Shown here: in pieces, positions 28,130-50,344 of the stretch
Layout of the letters: each line of letters begins with the position of its first letter
How positions within the stretch are numbered: position 1 is the stretch's first letter
From: Kiritimatiellia bacterium
Lineage (GTDB): Bacteria; Verrucomicrobiota; Kiritimatiellia; CAIVKH01
Reading direction: 5' to 3'
Length of the DNA: 64,000 nucleotides
NCBI GenBank assembly: GCA_027493775.1
Contig: JAOSKE010000002.1
Span: 407,435-471,434, forward strand
Translations under genes and position numbers: made by a program
The notes under the pieces: model-generated
The model's database searches: none
What the model was told of the DNA's origin: nothing
The model's input: the letters and a program-made list of their open reading frames with translations, nothing else

Positions 28130-29056
28130 CTATTCTTTTACGGGCTTTTCGGGGACAAGGACGGAAAGGACACGAGGCTCCACGGAGACTTCCACCTCCG
28201 CTTCGCTCTCCTGTAATTCGCCATCCACCTGAATCACGGCTTTTTTTTCGCGCCGCACACGCATCTGTTTGAAGCGATGCGTCACAACACCCGGAAGACC
28301 GTCGAGGGTGCCGTCAAAAAAGCGCGGAACATTGGCAAGCGCCCGGCCCGTTTCCGGTTTTTCAATAACGACCAGCTCAAGCAAGCCATCGTCAGGTTCG
28401 GCGGTCGGCGCAATGCGGAGACCACCTCCGAATTGCGTCAGGTTCGCAGCCGTAAAAACCAATGGCGAATGGAACTCAAGTTTCTCACGGCCATCCAGCG
28501 TCACCTCGAAACGTTGCGGCTGGTAATCAAACATTTCATACGCCGCAGCAAACACGTAGGGAATAATTCCTCGAAACGGAAATGTCTCAATCGTCCGCAC
28601 AAGCGAAGCGTCTGCGGCCATGCTACAGGTAATAAAGAATGGACGCCCGTTCGCAACACCCACATCAATCTTTCGCACTGTGGCGCGCGTCAATGCCTTC
28701 GCCGCGGCTTCGATGTTCAACGGAACTCCGAAATGCCGCGCGAATCCATTTCCGCTTCCCGTCGGAATCACACCGAGCGCAACGTCACTCCCGATCAGCT
28801 CCGAACCGATCGTGTTCACGATGCCGTCTCCACCCATCACCAGAACCACGCTCACGCCATCGCCAACCGCGCGACGAGCCTTGCGGCGGCCATCCTGTTC
28901 GTTGTTGCTGAATTCAAAAGAGACATCGCAGCCCAACTCGCTCCAATGCCGGTTGACCGAGTGAACCACATCATCCAATGAATGGCCGCGCCCACTGTGC
29001 GGATTCATCAATACCCGCACGAGCTTCCGCTTCGCCACAGTTCCAACATCACTCAT
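28130..29056 (-). CDS. diacylglycerol kinase-family lipid kinase (YegS/DagK catalytic domain)
   Basis: GGDGT-type motif VLVMGGDGIVNT and conserved downstream GxIPxGSGNxFA. Confidence 0.8.
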   Translation of the reverse strand: MSDVGTVAKRKLVRVLMNPHSGRGHSLDDVVHSVNRHWSELGCDVSFEFSNNEQDGRRKARRAVGDGVSVVLVMGGDGIVNTIGSELIGSDVALGVIPTGSGNGFARHFGVPLNIEAAAKALTRATVRKIDVGVANGRPFFITCSMAADASLVRTIETFPFRGIIPYVFAAAYEMFDYQPQRFEVTLDGREKLEFHSPLVFTAANLTQFGGGLRIAPTAEPDDGLLELVVIEKPETGRALANVPRFFDGTLDGLPGVVTHRFKQMRVRREKKAVIQVDGELQESEAEVEVSVEPRVLSVLVPEKPVKE

Positions 29057-29237
29057 GCTTGAACTTTACCATCAATAAACAATTTTGGCGATAAAAAGCC
29101 CCCCACTCGCCCAACTGCGCCACATCGTCACCACTTGTTCGTACAAGATGCCGAAAGCGTCATTATGTCACACAGCCCGTCGCCCAGTGAAGATAGTAAC
29201 ATTATGACTACCAACGCTTTATTCGAGTTTAACAAAC

Positions 29238-29253
29238 CTGGCACGCGCAATGC
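29238..29253 (+). promoter_or_regulatory. sigma-54 (-24/-12) type promoter upstream of the hsp20 operon
   Basis: CTGGCACGCGCAATGC: TGGCACG exact, GG (29240-41) and GC (29252-53) at the canonical spacing; -12 element ATGC versus consensus TTGC. About 33 nt upstream of ATG 29286. Confidence 0.5.
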
Positions 29254-29285
29254 TTTCTATAAATGCGTAAATAAGGAGAAACACA

Positions 29286-29723
29286 ATGGTATATCCTATC
29301 GCAAGATTAGATTGGTCGCTGGATCCGTTCAACGGGCTTCACAGGCTTCATCGCGATATGAATCGTCTCTTTGCCGGGTTTGCGTCTCCGGCCGAGCGAT
29401 TTCCCGCAATAAACCTTTGGAACTCGGAAGACGGCATGGTGCTGGCTGCCGAAATTCCGGGCGTGGACCCGAAGGATGTCGAGGTATCGGTGCTGGGCAA
29501 CGTGGTCTCGGTGTCGGGTGAGCGCAAAACGGATTCGTCCGTTCCTGCGGATAATTATCACCGCCGCGAGCGCGAGGCCGGAAAGTTCACGCGCTCGATC
29601 CGCCTGCCCTACGAGGTCGAATCAGACAGCGTTCAGGCTCGGTATGAGTTCGGAACACTGCGCGTCACATTGCCGCGCAAGGAGGCAACCAAGCCACGGC
29701 GCATCGCAATCAGCGCGGAATAA
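29286..29723 (+). CDS. Hsp20/alpha-crystallin family small heat-shock protein (1 of 3)
   Basis: Alpha-crystallin domain (WSLDPF...MNRLFAGF...ARYEFGTLRVTLPRKE); perfect AAGGAG 8 nt upstream of the ATG. Confidence 0.9.
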   Translation: MVYPIARLDWSLDPFNGLHRLHRDMNRLFAGFASPAERFPAINLWNSEDGMVLAAEIPGVDPKDVEVSVLGNVVSVSGERKTDSSVPADNYHRREREAGKFTRSIRLPYEVESDSVQARYEFGTLRVTLPRKEATKPRRIAISAE

Positions 29724-29736
29724 GGAGCAACACAAA

Positions 29737-30126
29737 ATGACAACACAGACAGCAGAGCTTCAAACGAAAGAAAATGAGCGGACACGCGATCTCCCGGTTG
29801 CTGTGCCAGCAACGGATATTTACGAGACCGAGAACGGAATCGCACTGTCCGTGGACTTGCCCGGCGTGCGCCAGGAGCAGGTCGAGGTAACGCTTGAAAA
29901 TCGAGTGCTCACGATCAGTGCGCGAAGCGAAGCGGTGGATCCGGCGGGTTACGATGCCGTTCATCGCGATTTCGAGCCGGTCGAATATCGCCGTTCGTTC
30001 ACACTCACGGAGGATGTGGATCGCGCGGCAATCAGCGCACGGCTCAAAAACGGCGTTCTACACCTCGCGCTGCCCAAAGCTGCGGAATCGCAGCCGCGAC
30101 GCATTGAGGTAAAGACGGAACATTAA
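29737..30126 (+). CDS. Hsp20/alpha-crystallin family small heat-shock protein (2 of 3)
   Basis: MTTQTAELQTKENERTRDLPVAVPATDIYETENGIALSVDLPGV...NGVLHLALPK; AAGGAG upstream; 13 nt after the previous stop. Confidence 0.85.
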   Translation: MTTQTAELQTKENERTRDLPVAVPATDIYETENGIALSVDLPGVRQEQVEVTLENRVLTISARSEAVDPAGYDAVHRDFEPVEYRRSFTLTEDVDRAAISARLKNGVLHLALPKAAESQPRRIEVKTEH

Positions 30127-30147: not shown

Positions 30148-30663
30148 ATGAAAAAGAACTTGGTTCCATGGCGCAGACGCGCAAGCGACTCCGCGATGGC
30201 GCGGCACGAGGACAATCCTTTCGCCGACTTCCATCGCCAAATGAACCGGCTGTTCGATGACTTCTTCTCGGATTTCGAGGATAGGCCCTTCGGGCTACGG
30301 CTCCCCTCCGCGTTCGAGCGCACCGACACGGCCACGCCCCGCGTGGATGTGTCGGAAACGGACAAAGAGGTGACGGTGAAAGCCGATCTCCCCGGCATCG
30401 CGGAAAAGGATGTTCAAGTCACACTTGATGAAGATGTCCTGATCATTCGCGGGACACGCGAAGATGAGCGGGAAGAAAAGAAGCGGAACTACCACATCGT
30501 GGAACGCCAATACGGCGAATTCCAGCGAAGCGTCCCGCTACCCGGCGGAATTGACGAGGAACACGTAAAGGCCAGCTTTGAAAAAGGCGTGCTGACCGTG
30601 ACCCTGCCGAAACTGCCAGAAGCGCAGTCGAGAAAGAAAACGATTGCGGTGACGAGCGAATAA
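30148..30663 (+). CDS. Hsp20/alpha-crystallin family small heat-shock protein (3 of 3)
   Basis: ...FADFHRQMNRLFDDFF...VKADLPGIAEKDVQVTLDEDVLIIRG...KGVLTVTLPK; GGAAGGAGG upstream. Confidence 0.9.
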   Translation: MKKNLVPWRRRASDSAMARHEDNPFADFHRQMNRLFDDFFSDFEDRPFGLRLPSAFERTDTATPRVDVSETDKEVTVKADLPGIAEKDVQVTLDEDVLIIRGTREDEREEKKRNYHIVERQYGEFQRSVPLPGGIDEEHVKASFEKGVLTVTLPKLPEAQSRKKTIAVTSE

Positions 30664-30668
30664 ACATC

Positions 30669-30704
30669 GAGGGCGCGGCGCCCGCCGCGCCCTCTCTATT
30701 TATT
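30669..30704 (+). terminator. rho-independent terminator after the hsp20 operon
   Basis: GAGGGCGCGGC-gccc-GCCGCGCCCTC (11-bp GC-rich stem) followed by TCTATTTATT, between convergent hsp20 and alaS. Confidence 0.6.
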
Positions 30705-44282: not shown

Positions 44283-45588
44283 TCAACCCTCGGATTTTTT
44301 CGGCCAGTATTGGTCCGTCATCTTGCCAGGAATACCGGTCTCCGTCGGCTCAAAGCAGTCCGCAAGGATGTGCCAGCCGAGGTCGAGCGCCTTTTCCAAC
44401 GGAATATTCACGCTCAGATCCATCATCTCGCGCTCAAAGCGCGCGCCGTACTTGAGCAACTTCTGATCCCACGCGCTCATCCGGAAACCCATCGCCTGCT
44501 TCTCCAGTGTTTCGCGATAGGACGCATAAAGCTGAATCATCGAGTTCATAATCGTGCGGTGATCCGCGCGCGTCTTGTCGTTCACCAACTGCTTCAGACG
44601 ACTGAGCGAACCGAACGGCTCGATGCGTCCGTTGCGCAGATAGAACTGCCCCTCGGTAATGTAGCCCGTATTGTCCGGCACCGGGTGCGTGACGTCATCG
44701 CCCGGCATCGTGGTCACCGCGAGAATGGTAATAGATCCGGCCGTATCGAAATCCACCGCCTTCTCGTAGCGCGCAGCCAACTGGCTATAGAGGTCACCCG
44801 GATAGCCGCGGTTCGACGGAATCTGCTCCATCGTAATCGCGATTTCCTTCATCGCGTCGGAGAAGTTTGTCATATCGGTCAGCAACACAAGCACGCGCTT
44901 GCTCTGCAGCGCAAACTGCTCCGCGACGGCAAGCGCAATGTCCGGCACCATCAAACACTCCACCGTTGGATCCGCAGCCGTGTGAACGAACAACACCGAG
45001 CGCGCCAACGCGCCCTGCTTTTCGAGCGTGTCGCGGAAATACAAATAATCGTCGTGCTTCAGCCCCATGCCGCCGAGAATGATGATGTCCACTTCTGCTT
45101 GCAGCGCGATGCGCGCAAGCAACGGGTTATACGGCTCACCCGCGACCGAAAAAATCGGGAGTTTCTGCGACTCGACGAGCGTGTTGAACACGTCAATCAT
45201 CGGCAGCCCCGTGCGCACCATGTTTCGCGGAATAATACGCTTCGCCGGATTGACGGACGGGCCGCCAATGGCGGTCATATTTTCTTCAATCGTCGGGCCG
45301 CGATCGCGCGGCTGACCAGAGCCGGTAAAGATGCGGCCCAACAACGCATCGGAAAACGGGACTTCCATCGGATGTCCGAGAAAACGCACCTGCGCATCCG
45401 TCGTGATGCCGCGACTGCCCGCGAACACCTGCAAGTACACGCGCTCGCCCTCGAGTCGAATCACCTGCGCCAACGAGGACCCCGTGTTCGGAGGTGACCT
45501 GCGCCAATTCGCGATAGCCGATTCCTTCCGCGCGCACCACAATGACGTTGCCCGCGATCTGTTCGATTTGTTGATACGTCTTATGCAT
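44283..45588 (-). CDS. atpB: V-type ATPase subunit B; frameshifted at G4/C4 run 45480-45483
   Basis: N-terminus [35 protein letters not shown] (ORF 45286-45588) and the rest ([26 protein letters not shown]... with the nucleotide-binding region) in ORF 44283-45542. Confidence 0.8.
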
Positions 45589-47317
45589 GAGCCGTCACCT
45601 CCGCGAGCATGTCTTCCGCGCGGCTTTCGAGCGTTTTGAATTCGGCGCCGTCCTGCGGCGTGCGGTTCCAGTCCTTTGTGAGCTGTGTCAGCTTTTGGAA
45701 AAATTGCCGTGCGGCATCCTTTTCTTCAAACGTCATCTGCATCTTGAGAACATCGTGAATGTGGTTGAACATATACTTTTGACGATCCGCTGACGTCGCA
45801 GCGTCCACATCGTGATACGCATCCTGCTGCAGATAGACCGAATCGAGATACTCCGCCTTCAGGTACACGACAAAGTCGTCAATGGATGTCCCCTCTTCGC
45901 CGACGACCTTCATCATCTGATTCACTTCACTTCCGCGCCGCAACGTGGAACGCGCAAACACGACTTGATCTTCCGGCACAACACCGTCGTACTTGCTCCA
46001 GGAATCCAGCGGCTGAATCGCCGGGAACCGGCGCGCATCCGAGCGTTCGCGCGACAACCCATGAAACGCGCCGACGACCTTCAGCGTGCTTTGCGTGACC
46101 GGCTCTTCAAAGTTGCCGCCCGCCGGACTCACCGTTCCTCCGATGGTGACCGACCCCGTCGATCCGTCGCGCAATCGCACCACGCCACCGCGCTCGTAGA
46201 ACGCGGCGATAACCGATTCGAGGTACGCAGGGAACGCTTCTTCACCCGGAATTTCTTCCAAGCGCCCGGACATTTCGCGCAGCGCCTGCGCCCAACGCGA
46301 CGTGGAGTCGGCCAGCAGCAGCACGTTGAGGCCCATCTGGCGGTAGTACTCCGCCAGCGTCACGCCCGTGTACACCGACGCCTCGCGCGCAGCGACGGGC
46401 ATCGAGCTGGTATTACAAATAATCAGCGTGCGCTCCATCAAACTGCGGCCCGTGCGCGGATCCTCCAAGTGCGGAAATTCGCGCAAGGTTTCCACCACCT
46501 CACCCGCGCGTTCGCCGCAGGCGGTGATAATGACGATGTCCACATCCGCGTGGCGACTCGTGATCTGCTGCAAAACCGTCTTGCCGGCGCCGAACGGACC
46601 GGGGATGCAATAGGTGCCGCCGCGCGATACCGGGAAGAATGTGTCTACAATGCGAACCTTCGTGACGAGCGGTTCCGTGGGACGCAAACGCTCCGTGTAC
46701 ACTTTGATCGGCAGCTTCACCGGCCAGCGCTGCATCATCGAAACGGAAATCGCGCGCCCCTGCTCGCCCTTCAATGTCGCAATGCCCTCCTCCACCGTGC
46801 GCTCGCCCGCGCCGACGATGGTCTCCACCGTGAACGTTCCGCGCAGCCGGAACGGGACCATGATTCGGTGTTCAAAAATGCCTTCGGGCACCGTTCCCAG
46901 CGTATCGCCCGCCTGCACAACATCACCCACCTTCACCTTGGGCGTGAAGGCCCATTTCGTGTTGCGATCCAACGCGGAAAGATACTTTCCGCGCTGTAGA
47001 AAAAAGCCGCTCTCCTCCGCCAACTCGGGCAGCGGGTTTTGCAAGCCGTCATAAATGGCGCCGAGCAGACCGGGGCCCAATTCAACGCTCAGCAGTTCGC
47101 CGGTGAAATCCACCGCATCGCCCACGCGCAAATCGCCCGTGTCTTCGAACACTTGCAGCTCTGCGATGTTGCCGCGAATTCGAATCACCTCCGCCTTCAA
47201 GCGAAGGTCGCCACTCATCGCATAGGCCACCTCGTTTTGCGCAACTGGCGAAAAGAATTCAACGCGAAGCAGGTTTCCGTTGATCCCTGTAATTTTACCC
47301 TGATGTGTCGTTTCCAT
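45581..47317 (-). CDS. atpA: V-type ATPase catalytic subunit A
   Basis: 578 aa with the Walker A motif GPFGAGKT and typical A-subunit N-terminal barrel; apparently intact. Confidence 0.9.
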
Positions 47318-47880: not shown

Positions 47881-48504
47881 CTACCCATTCTCGCGCGCGG
47901 CCTGATAAACGATCGCGGCGAGGTGTGGACGCAGAAAACTCGAAAGCGCCTCCGCAATCGCCTCATTGGTAAAGCTGTGTTCAATGCGGCCATTCGCGAG
48001 CTTCACGTTGAAACCCTTCAAGATGCGCTCGTCGCCTTTCACTTCGAGGCCCTTGCCCAACTGCTCGCGGTACTTCGATTTGAAGAACGCGACCAATCGC
48101 TCCTGGTCCTTCGGGTTGACCATCACTTCGATCCGATGCTCGCGATCCGGTCGGGACCAGTACGATTCGACGAGCTTCTCCAACATCGTCTGTACCGTCT
48201 CGTACGTCAGCGAGGCGTCGGACGCCTCTTTCGCGAGACGACCGACGATGTTCTCTACGCCCCGCCCGACCGTGATCAACAAATCGCGCGATGCCTGCCG
48301 GAGTGTTTGCTGGCTGCGCGCCGTGAATTGCTCCGCGTCGCGCTCGGCCTTTTCCCGATACTCTTTTGCCTGCTTCTCCGCCTCCGCGACAATCTCTGCG
48401 GCTTGCCTCTTCGCCTTCGCGACGAGATCCGCTGCCTGCTTTTCGCCGGTGTCCACGGCCTCGCGCTGGATGCGCTCGATCAGATGTTGCAATTCTTCAG
48501 CCAT
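47881..48504 (-). CDS. atpE: V-type ATPase subunit E
   Basis: MAEELQHLIERIQREAVDTGEKQAADLVAKAKRQAAEI...; ATG 48504 with AAGGAG 9 nt upstream. Confidence 0.8.
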   Translation of the reverse strand: MAEELQHLIERIQREAVDTGEKQAADLVAKAKRQAAEIVAEAEKQAKEYREKAERDAEQFTARSQQTLRQASRDLLITVGRGVENIVGRLAKEASDASLTYETVQTMLEKLVESYWSRPDREHRIEVMVNPKDQERLVAFFKSKYREQLGKGLEVKGDERILKGFNVKLANGRIEHSFTNEAIAEALSSFLRPHLAAIVYQAARENG

Positions 48505-48592
48505 TGACGACCACTCCTTAATCTTGTCGCCATACCCTTTTCGAATAAAGGGCATCCCGACGTGAAAGACACGGGTGTTATAGGCAAGGATA

Positions 48593-48610
48593 TGGCAATT
48601 GAAAAGCCAA
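48593..48610 (-). promoter_or_regulatory. possible sigma-54-like or palindromic element upstream of the V-type ATPase operon
   Basis: Minus strand reads TTGGCTTTTCAATTGCCA: GG and GC at -24/-12 spacing but a weak -24 box (TGGCTT); also TGGC...GCCA inverted ends. About 90 nt upstream of the atpE ATG. Confidence 0.25.
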
Positions 48611-48663: not shown

Positions 48664-50344
48664 TTACGGAACCCTGAAGTTTGCGGTCAACTCAACGACC
48701 TCTTTTCCGACGGCCTCTATGACCGATTCGTTTTGCGGGTCGTTGAGCACGCGCGAAATGAATCCCGCAATACGGGCCATTTCCTTTTCCTTCATTCCGC
48801 GCGTGGTCAACGCGGGAGTGCCGAGACGAATGCCCGAAGTGACAAAGGCGCTCTTGGTATCGAACGGAATCGTGTTTTTATTGACCGTGATGTTCGCCCT
48901 ATCCAGCGCTACCGCCGCGTCCTTTCCGCTAAGCCCCGCAGCGCCGACATCCACGAGCATCAGGTGATTGTCCGTGCCACTGGAGCAAATCCGGAAGCCT
49001 GCATCCATCATCCCCTTCGCCAAGGCCCGCGCATTGGCAACGATCTGTTTCGCGTAGTCCGCGAACGACGGCTGCAGTGCCTCGCCAAAGCAAATCGCCT
49101 TCGCAGCAATAATATGCATCAGCGGCCCGCCCTGAATGCCGGGGAATACCTGCTTATCGAGATCTGCCGCAAATTTTTCGCGGCACAAAATCAAGCCACC
49201 GCGCGGGCCGCGCAGCGTCTTGTGCGTCGTCGAGGTGACAAAGTCGGAATAGGGAACCGGAGCTCGGATGCGCACCGCCCGCGACCAACCCCGCGATGTG
49301 CGCCATATCCACCATCAGCAACGCGCCGACACTGTCCGCAATCTCGCGGAAACGCTTGAAGTCAATGATGCGGGAATAGGCGCTCGCGCCGGAGGTGATT
49401 AGTTTCGGACGATGCTCCTTCGCAAGACGCTCGATCTCGTCGTAGTCAATCTGCTCCGTGTCCTGCCGCACGCCGTACGGAATCACCTTATAGTAACGGC
49501 CCGAAAAGTTCATCGGGTGACCGTGGGTCAGGTGTCCGCCATGCGAGAGATTCATCGCGAGAATCGTGTCGCCCGGTTGCAGCACTGAAAAATAAACCGC
49601 CATATTGGCCTGACTGCCGCTGTGCGTCTGCACATTCGCGTGCTCCGCGCCGAACAACTGCGTCACGCGGTCAATTGCAAGCTGCTCCGCTTTGTCCACA
49701 CACTCGCAGCCGCCGTACCAGCGCTTCTTGGGATAACCCTCGGCGTACTTGTTCGTCATATTGCAGCCAGCAGCCTGACGAATCGCGCGGCTCGTGTAGT
49801 TTTCGGAAGCAATCAGCTCCAAATTCCGGCGCTGCCGAACGCCCTCTTCCGTAATCGCTTCGAAGATCGGTGAATCGTGCTTGGCGATGGAGTCCAATCC
49901 CCCGGCAATGTTGCTCGATTGTTCAATCTTTTCGATGCGGCGAACGTGGCGGCCGCCCTCAAATTCTGTCGCAAACCACTTCTCTAAAATTGCGGGAATC
50001 TCCGCAGTCGGCGTCGTCGCCGCACCAAAGACGATGATATTTGCATTGTTGTGCAAACGTGCAAGTCGTGCCATTTCGGGCGAAACGATCAAAGCGGCGC
50101 GAATGCCGGGATAACGGTTCGCAGTGATGCTCATCCCCACGCCGGTCTTGCAGATCAACAAGCCCTGATCAAATTCGTGATCCGCAACGCGACGCGCAAC
50201 GACGCTCGCGTAGTCAGGATAGTCCACCGACTCCGGCCCAAAAGCGCCGATGTCCTCAACCTCAACGCCACGCTTTGTGAGCAGGTCCTTAACCAACGCC
50301 TTCATCTCCACGCCGCCGTGGTCGGAACCAATAATCATCTTCAT
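48664..50344 (-). CDS. glyA: ribose-5-phosphate isomerase B fused to serine hydroxymethyltransferase; frameshifted near 49264
   Basis: Residues 1-145 are RpiB ([11 protein letters not shown]...[15 protein letters not shown]...[13 protein letters not shown]), running without stop into SHMT ([11 protein letters not shown]...[11 protein letters not shown]). The SHMT C-terminus ([25 protein letters not shown]...) is in the frame of ORF 48664-49275. Confidence 0.75.

Follow-up and report, generated by a model that had tools for sequence, protein, structure and literature searches.

The locus studied here raises the question of whether three tandem small heat-shock genes of a Kiritimatiellia bacterium are transcribed from a sigma-54 (-24/-12) promoter and, if so, through which kind of activator that promoter would be switched on. 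Heat-shock control in bacteria is understood mainly through sigma-32, HrcA, HspR and CtsR. In addition, there is growing evidence that several non-proteobacterial phyla use sigma-54 in their place, with the activator and its enhancer undefined there. An initial annotation of the window (the whole stretch of DNA that was analysed, 64,000 nucleotides long) had proposed a sigma-54 promoter for the three-gene operon; the proposal is supported here, with all the computational tests that were run in agreement, and the motif is very probably a real promoter driving the three genes. The features of the locus are collected in Table 1.

Table 1. Features of the hsp20 locus in the window, and a gene module found in other loci (locus coordinates)
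Feature	Position	Strand	Remarks
Diacylglycerol-kinase/YegS-like gene	28130-29056	-	divergent from hsp20-1
Distal palindrome GCGCCACATCGTCAC	29117-29131		7/8 core positions; about -122 from the T of TGGCA
Proximal palindrome GCGTCATTATGTCAC	29157-29171		8/8 core positions; -82 from the T of TGGCA, roughly -100 from the predicted start
Degenerate third palindrome-like copy GTAACATTATGACTA	29196-29210		6/8 core positions; overlaps IHF-like TACCAACGCTTTA (29209-29221)
Putative sigma-54 (-24/-12) promoter CTGGCACGCGCAATGCT	29238-29254	+	rank 1 in window; GG at 29240-41, GC at 29252-53
Predicted transcription start	29265	+	from sigma-54 geometry, about 12 nt after the GC
Shine-Dalgarno AAGGAG of hsp20-1	29273-29278	+	from sequence
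hsp20-1	29286-29723	+	145 aa; PF00011, E 3e-21, 75.9 bits
hsp20-2	29737-30126	+	129 aa; own AAGGAG; 13 nt past hsp20-1; PF00011, E 2e-18, 66.8 bits
hsp20-3	30148-30663	+	171 aa; own AAGGAGG; 21 nt past hsp20-2; PF00011, E 6e-26, 90.9 bits
Intrinsic-terminator-like hairpin	30669-30704	+	11-bp stem, 10 GC pairs, T-rich tail
Module of histidine kinase, NtrC-type activator, Rnk/GreA-like protein and PTS-EIIA(Ntr)-domain protein	L094 6851-12968; L095 6882-11361; L096 6809-11570; L035 1045-5479		

The annotated Hsp20 identity of the three products is borne out, as each of them matches the Pfam family HSP20 (PF00011) above its cut-off of 20.8 bits, and the strong AAGGAG ascribed to every gene is present at 29273-78 and, as AAGGAG(G), before each of the other two. 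The anatomy is that of one operon, because the genes are separated by gaps of only 13 and 21 nt, each has its own AAGGAG(G) and a hairpin closes the set before alaS. This hairpin is bidirectional, lying between hsp20-3 and the convergent alaS and common to both. Among the 40 other promoter-bearing loci that were examined outside the window, 28 keep the 1-2-3 gene order. The orthologues of hsp20-1, with 59-92% identity, are metagenomic, and the named ones belong to Kiritimatiellia, which assigns the window to an uncultivated species of this class within the PVC superphylum. Ten contigs of the same species from public runs (L001-L010) carry an identical locus and are hence uninformative on conservation. 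In the closest relative (L091, 6001-6927; Hsp20-1 92% identical), only the first two hsp20 genes stand before alaS, the third having been either lost or never gained.

The motif lies on the + strand in non-coding DNA, within the 229-nt intergenic region between the divergent gene and hsp20-1. The letters at 29238-29253 (CTGGCACGCGCAATGC) are those reported in the initial annotation, with GG and GC at canonical spacing, and the C of the -12 GC is 33 nt before the ATG of hsp20-1 (29286), in agreement with the distance of about 33 nt given there. Described by its core, the site (TGGCACGCGCAATGC, 29239-29253) has one mismatch to TGGCAC-N5-TTGC and its GG and GC are exactly 10 nt apart. The matrix scoring suggested as a check was carried out with the 18 E. 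coli sigma-54 promoters that are known from experiment and tabulated in PMC2831329. The resulting matrix gave the site 17.7 bits, rank 1 of the 127,964 positions in the window and 5.5 bits above the runner-up (12.2 bits). When the genuine E. coli promoters are themselves scored by leave-one-out (3.5-20.3 bits), 17.7 bits falls in their upper half. A second, independent matrix, drawn up from the published consensus, again placed the promoter as the top-scoring site in the window.

An alternative is that this match arose by chance, with the operon using a sigma-70-type or unknown PVC-type promoter and TGGCAC-N5-ATGC having no function. In line with this notion, the loose consensus TGGCAC-N5-TTGC with one mismatch allowed is not enriched in the window (5 observed, 5.3 expected), and 12 of 200 shuffled windows (6%) reach 17.7 bits at some position. 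The exact TGGCACG that had been pointed out occurs, as TGGCACG-N5-TGC, once in the window as compared with 0.27 expected. Taken from the sequence alone, without position or conservation, the site is thus suggestive, exceeding chance only weakly. No sigma-70-type hexamer pair was detected by consensus scan on the + strand upstream of hsp20-1, which speaks against the alternative, although the rules for sigma-70 promoters in the PVC group are poorly known and such a negative scan is therefore weak. It is the position and the conservation of the motif that make it more than a chance match, and the comparative evidence is what we regard as decisive for a real promoter.

In this regard, a collection of genomes, one per species, was scanned with alignment of the orthologue group, yielding 80 loci, and the stretch of 300 nt before every hsp20 start was scored for the promoter, with thresholds of 14 and 12 bits. 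A site of at least 14 bits is found in 35 of 79 hsp20-homologue loci, at 33-96 nt from the start codon, as against only 0.5% of 300-nt windows drawn at random from these loci. The 35 are labelled as Kiritimatiellia, Verrucomicrobiota, Lentisphaerota/Victivallales, 'PVC group', Phycisphaerae, Planctomycetes or unclassified, except for one Nitrospirae metagenome-assembled genome (MAG), and every hsp20-homologue locus labelled as Chloroflexi, Acidobacteriota, Actinomycetota, delta-proteobacteria or Myxococcales stays below 12 bits. When the window was aligned with seven Kiritimatiellia loci, TGGCA, TGCT, the Shine-Dalgarno sequence and the ATG proved invariant, against a mean column identity of 56%. 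The TGGCA-N7-TGC spacing is invariant in about 40 orthologous loci, from Kiritimatiellia, Lentisphaerota, Verrucomicrobiota and Planctomycetota, in which the distance to the start codon varies and the rest of the intergenic DNA has diverged. In three loci of Planctomycetales, the site is found farther out, at about 300 nt upstream. Such a pattern is as expected for a functional sigma-54 promoter at the head of an old operon; set against an invariant motif amid diverged DNA and the rarity of equal scores in random windows, a coincidental match is very improbable.

The locus in the MAG labelled Nitrospirae (L044, 5855-7386) has the hsp20 triad and the sigma-54 site without the type of palindrome described below (GnGnCA-N3-TGnCnC). 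This case could reflect horizontal transfer, mis-binning or a different activator.

Many small heat-shock genes are controlled by ROSE or fourU RNA thermometers, and the operon might therefore be regulated mainly after transcription, by a thermometer in its 5' untranslated region, with the promoter being secondary. Distant relatives (L020, L022, L023 and L026) do have a conserved hairpin in a longer 5' untranslated region, which lends the idea some support. The predicted leader of hsp20-1, by contrast, is about 21 nt long and shows no significant structure when its folding is compared with shuffles (z = 0.15), and an Rfam scan of the window returned only a tRNA elsewhere and nothing in the promoter region. 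The absent Rfam match and the unstructured leader speak against a thermometer at hsp20-1, and mainly post-transcriptional control is very unlikely. The window does not have the hairpin of the relatives (GGGAGAtnnTCTCCC), which is found about 25-55 nt past the promoter in a Kiritimatiellia/Verrucomicrobiota subgroup and may serve there as a transcript stabiliser or a thermometer. Among classical heat-shock operators, neither CIRCE (TTAGCACTC-N9-GAGTGCTAA) nor HAIR (CTTGAGT-N7-ACTCAAG) has a match in the window with up to three mismatches.

Upstream of the putative promoter, the alignment revealed two palindromes that a generic repeat finder had missed in the intergenic region. Their consensus is 15 bp long, GnGnCA-N3-TGnCnC, and in promoter-anchored loci the two copies begin about 82 and about 122 nt before the T of TGGCA, and are thus about 40 nt apart; in L026 the sequence GCGACATAATGTCGC is present twice as palindrome copies. 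The pattern was defined on seven loci (L011-L017) and tested on 29 held-out loci at a match of at least 7/8. The proximal palindrome is found at -78 to -86 in 12 of the 29 (0.8% of random anchors) and the distal one at -108 to -130 in 20 of the 29 (1.6% of random anchors), and the proximal copy is also kept in the closest relatives (L091-L093). Two dyad-symmetric enhancer sites at such upstream positions are the classical layout for AAA+ activators such as NtrC, NorR and DctD. The palindromes of the window, which lie at about -100 and -140 relative to the predicted start, conform to this layout, and we consider them probable enhancer sites of an activator ATPase.

The function of the degenerate third copy is doubtful, and the IHF-like element that overlaps it shows weak conservation in relatives. 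The IHF site itself was set aside, since one-mismatch matches to it are not above chance in the window (33 found, 27.7 expected). A further palindrome with an 8/8 core (GCGTCACATTGCCGC) is located at 29662-29676 (+) within the coding region of hsp20-1, about 60 nt before hsp20-2; it is probably due to chance, since no sigma-54 site follows it and the window holds 28 matches of at least 7/8.

The combination of palindrome and promoter is also found before other genes. In a Verrucomicrobiota MAG (L019), clpB points away from the hsp20 triad and is preceded by a sigma-54 site and a palindrome of its own, and a cbpA-like dnaJ and a MerR_2 gene come after the triad. A metagenome collection was then scanned for the promoter, a gap of 64-70 nt and the palindrome, and at least 120 loci were obtained. 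Among the 84 matches with a callable downstream reading frame (of at least 120 matches listed), the first gene is hsp20 in about 20, clpB in about 10, dnaK in 4, groES in 3 and htpG in 1, and a sigma-70-family factor stands behind the module in 3 among the 120 matches listed, one of which (L183) is outside the 84. Both palindromes are present in 33 among the matches listed, and 24 of these 33 precede heat-shock-type genes (among the matches listed: 11 hsp20, 7 clpB, 2 groES, 1 dnaK and 3 sigma-70-family factor genes). Because the regions upstream of hsp20 had supplied the scan pattern, the hsp20 matches are not independent, while those before clpB, dnaK, groES, htpG and sigma-factor genes are. 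The presence of the module before chaperone genes points to a sigma-54 proteostasis regulon, as predicted from these upstream sequences.

Some matches of the scan deserve a separate comment. In L098 (about 660-1200), L157 and L183, a gene for a sigma-70-family factor with regions 2-4 (274 aa in L183) lies directly behind the dual palindrome and the sigma-54 promoter, which suggests a sigma cascade within the stress regulon. PII genes among the scan matches listed represent an unrelated system, and these matches are probably NtrC sites. In four loci (L112, L123, L178 and L192; for example, L192 1912-7372) there is a very large sigma-54 activator of about 1,600 aa (1,617-1,619), whose Pfam domains in L192 are protein kinase, STAND/AAA, TPR, GAF, AAA+ and HTH_8. 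The activator gene is directly followed by GCGACAWWWTGTCGC-type palindromes, with two clear copies in L112, L178 and L192, then by a sigma-54 promoter and a gene for a small secreted protein of 92-106 aa. These large-activator loci are a different system with the same palindrome type.

It is conceivable that the promoter is real while the palindromes are not enhancers, being instead operators for a repressor or another factor, or promoter elements of the divergent gene, with an activator that acts from solution or without a DNA-binding domain. Activators lacking such a domain exist in Chlamydia and Helicobacter. In addition, a minus-strand sigma-70-like -10 element (CATAAT) overlaps the proximal palindrome and could serve the divergent diacylglycerol-kinase-like gene, and the palindrome is so far tied to no activator. 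Against this stand the fixed distance of the palindromes to the sigma-54 promoter whatever gene is on the other side, their recurrence before clpB, dnaK, groES and htpG, the arrangement of two sites about 40 bp apart and 80-150 bp upstream, which is the classic enhancer layout, and the occurrence of the same palindrome type between the activator gene and the sigma-54 promoter in L112, L123, L178 and L192. A non-enhancer role is accordingly judged unlikely, and enhancer sites for a sigma-54 activator remain the reading that we favour.

The next issue is which protein would bind there. The initial annotation had stated that neither rpoN nor a bacterial enhancer-binding protein gene is in the window, and six-frame motif scans and phmmer indeed found neither signature. 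A search with an approximate E. coli RpoN query yielded no rpoN, either in the 64-kb window or in the other loci, which amount to about 1.6 Mb, and our literature search for rpoN in Kiritimatiellota returned nothing. Absence of sigma-54 from the Kiritimatiellia lineage is nevertheless unlikely, because genomes of Kiritimatiellales and Pontiellaceae encode sigma-54 activators and Pontiella has nifA (PMC10880615). Kiritimatiellales genomes also have sigma-54-type (-24/-12) motifs before other genes, and we infer that rpoN is present in the source genome.

In all the loci searched, an activator gene was found next to hsp20 only once, in L035, as an NtrC-type response regulator with a kinase nearby. 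Its homologues are 65-82% identical and occur in many lineages, including Pontiellaceae, Kiritimatiellales and strain S94, and they are always linked to genes for Rnk/GreA-like and PTS-EIIA-domain proteins, for which reason this regulator was rejected as the hsp20 activator. The complete module of histidine kinase, NtrC-type regulator, Rnk/GreA-like and PTS-EIIA(Ntr)-domain proteins is found in Kiritimatiellales and Verrucomicrobiota. The Rnk/GreA-like gene has its own sigma-54-type site in three of four distinct loci (L035, L095 and L096/L097, not L094), and the GnGnCA-N3-TGnCnC palindrome is absent from the four activator loci of this type. The adjacency to hsp20 in L035 appears coincidental, since the homologues keep other partners and lack the palindrome. 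A second candidate, in L184, is a response-regulator activator gene behind one palindrome and a promoter; it makes a weak case for an autoregulated heat-shock activator, being alone among the 120 matches listed and having no second palindrome.

These findings allow us to propose a model for the control of the operon, in which a functional sigma-54 promoter would drive hsp20-1, hsp20-2 and hsp20-3 as one operon with an activator bound at the palindromes, a proposal that we hold to be likely. Sigma-54 RNA polymerase would wait on TGGCAC-N5-ATGC in a closed complex. The promoter would fire only once an AAA+ enhancer-binding activator, whose gene would lie in another part of the genome, has bound the two 15-bp palindromes (centred about 100 and 140 bp before the start), reached the promoter by looping and opened the complex with ATP. 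The three genes would be transcribed together, from the predicted start up to the hairpin at 30669, presumably upon stress. The operon is most likely one member of a sigma-54-dependent regulon for proteotoxic or heat stress that is old within the PVC group, since the same module precedes clpB, dnaK, groES, htpG and a sigma-70-family factor gene in related bacteria. A broader proposal, to which we would give about even chances, is that the main heat-shock and proteostasis regulon of Kiritimatiellota, Lentisphaerota, Verrucomicrobiota and many Planctomycetota relies on sigma-54 and on a single putative activator, which would read GnGnCA-N3-TGnCnC at two fixed positions before hsp20, clpB, dnaK, groES, htpG and the sigma-70-family factor gene. 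If true, a stress-sensing AAA+ activator would fill in these bacteria the role that sigma-32 or HrcA has elsewhere, and the palindrome would be usable as bait.

Comparison with known enhancers offers a lead on the activator. As in NtrC/NorR-type systems, the promoter in the window is preceded by a pair of dyad-symmetric sites spaced by about 40 bp. NorR sites follow a GT-N7-AC rule, and variants of the palindrome of the form GTCA-N3-TGAC fit it, a likeness that serves as a lead only; the half-site differs between copies in its second base (GACA, GTCA, GCCA), so that many copies do not follow the NorR rule. The targets of the palindrome module are chaperones, as opposed to the NO-detoxification or nitrogen genes of NorR and NtrC.

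Sigma-54 promoters before chaperone genes have precedents, and control of such genes by sigma-54 is already known or predicted in other phyla. The sigma-54 promoter of E. coli ibpB, invoked as a parallel in the initial annotation, is confirmed by ChIP according to PMC2831329, where it is cited from Kuczynska-Wisnik et al. 2001. Like the window operon, ibpB is an Hsp20-family gene behind a -24/-12 promoter, but its site is weaker (TGGTAA-N5-TTGC), lies about 170-185 nt upstream within ibpAB and acts alongside a sigma-32 promoter, whereas the site in the window is near consensus, is the only recognisable promoter, heads three genes and is preceded by conserved palindromes. In Chlorobaculum tepidum, the HSP20 gene CT0644 is preceded by an RpoN motif at a primary start that has been mapped (bioRxiv 10.1101/172254); this is again an Hsp20-family gene behind a sigma-54 motif and outside Proteobacteria, differing in being a single gene of another phylum with no enhancer described. 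In Flavobacterium psychrophilum, -24/-12 promoters have been mapped before groES-groEL, dnaK, grpE-dnaJ, htpG, clpB and lon (PMC9723704), and a matrix survey from 2025 found predicted sigma-54 promoters to be enriched before GroEL/ES, IbpA, GrpE, DnaJ and DnaK in Planctomycetota and Bacteroidota (PMC12316311). The genes named for Flavobacterium/Bacteroidota and in the survey match those behind the palindrome-plus-promoter module. The Flavobacterium promoters have mapped starts, unlike the start in the window, which is predicted. We found no mention of Kiritimatiellota or Lentisphaerota in PMC9723704 and PMC12316311, which come without an enhancer motif, its geometry or a named activator, and our search of the literature on sigma-54 control of chaperones likewise returned nothing on these two phyla, on an enhancer motif or on an activator. 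Two points may be new, namely that a pair of palindromes is conserved at a fixed geometry and that the proposed regulon extends to several PVC phyla.

Together, these comparisons extend the sigma-54 heat-shock pattern to Kiritimatiellota and other PVC lineages. The conserved enhancer motif makes the putative stress-sensing activator tractable by experiment and computation, and two palindromes followed by TGGCA-N7-TGC provide an annotation rule for genes likely to be stress-induced in uncultivated PVC genomes.

Two further observations concern other parts of the window. A weak sigma-54-like motif (TGGCTTTTCAATTGCCA, 48593-48609, - strand; 12.7 bits with a PVC-derived matrix) is located in intergenic DNA upstream of V-type ATPase genes (E-like subunit, 47881-48555; A subunit, 45581-47317), with no palindrome beside it. 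The glyA gene for serine hydroxymethyltransferase (SHMT; 48664-50344, - strand) is split across two overlapping reading frames, of which 49154-50344 has an RpiB domain and covers positions 2-219 of the SHMT profile and 48664-49275 covers positions 217-399. The split may be due to a frameshift or an assembly error, or may mark a pseudogene; the reading frames also imply an RpiB-SHMT fusion.
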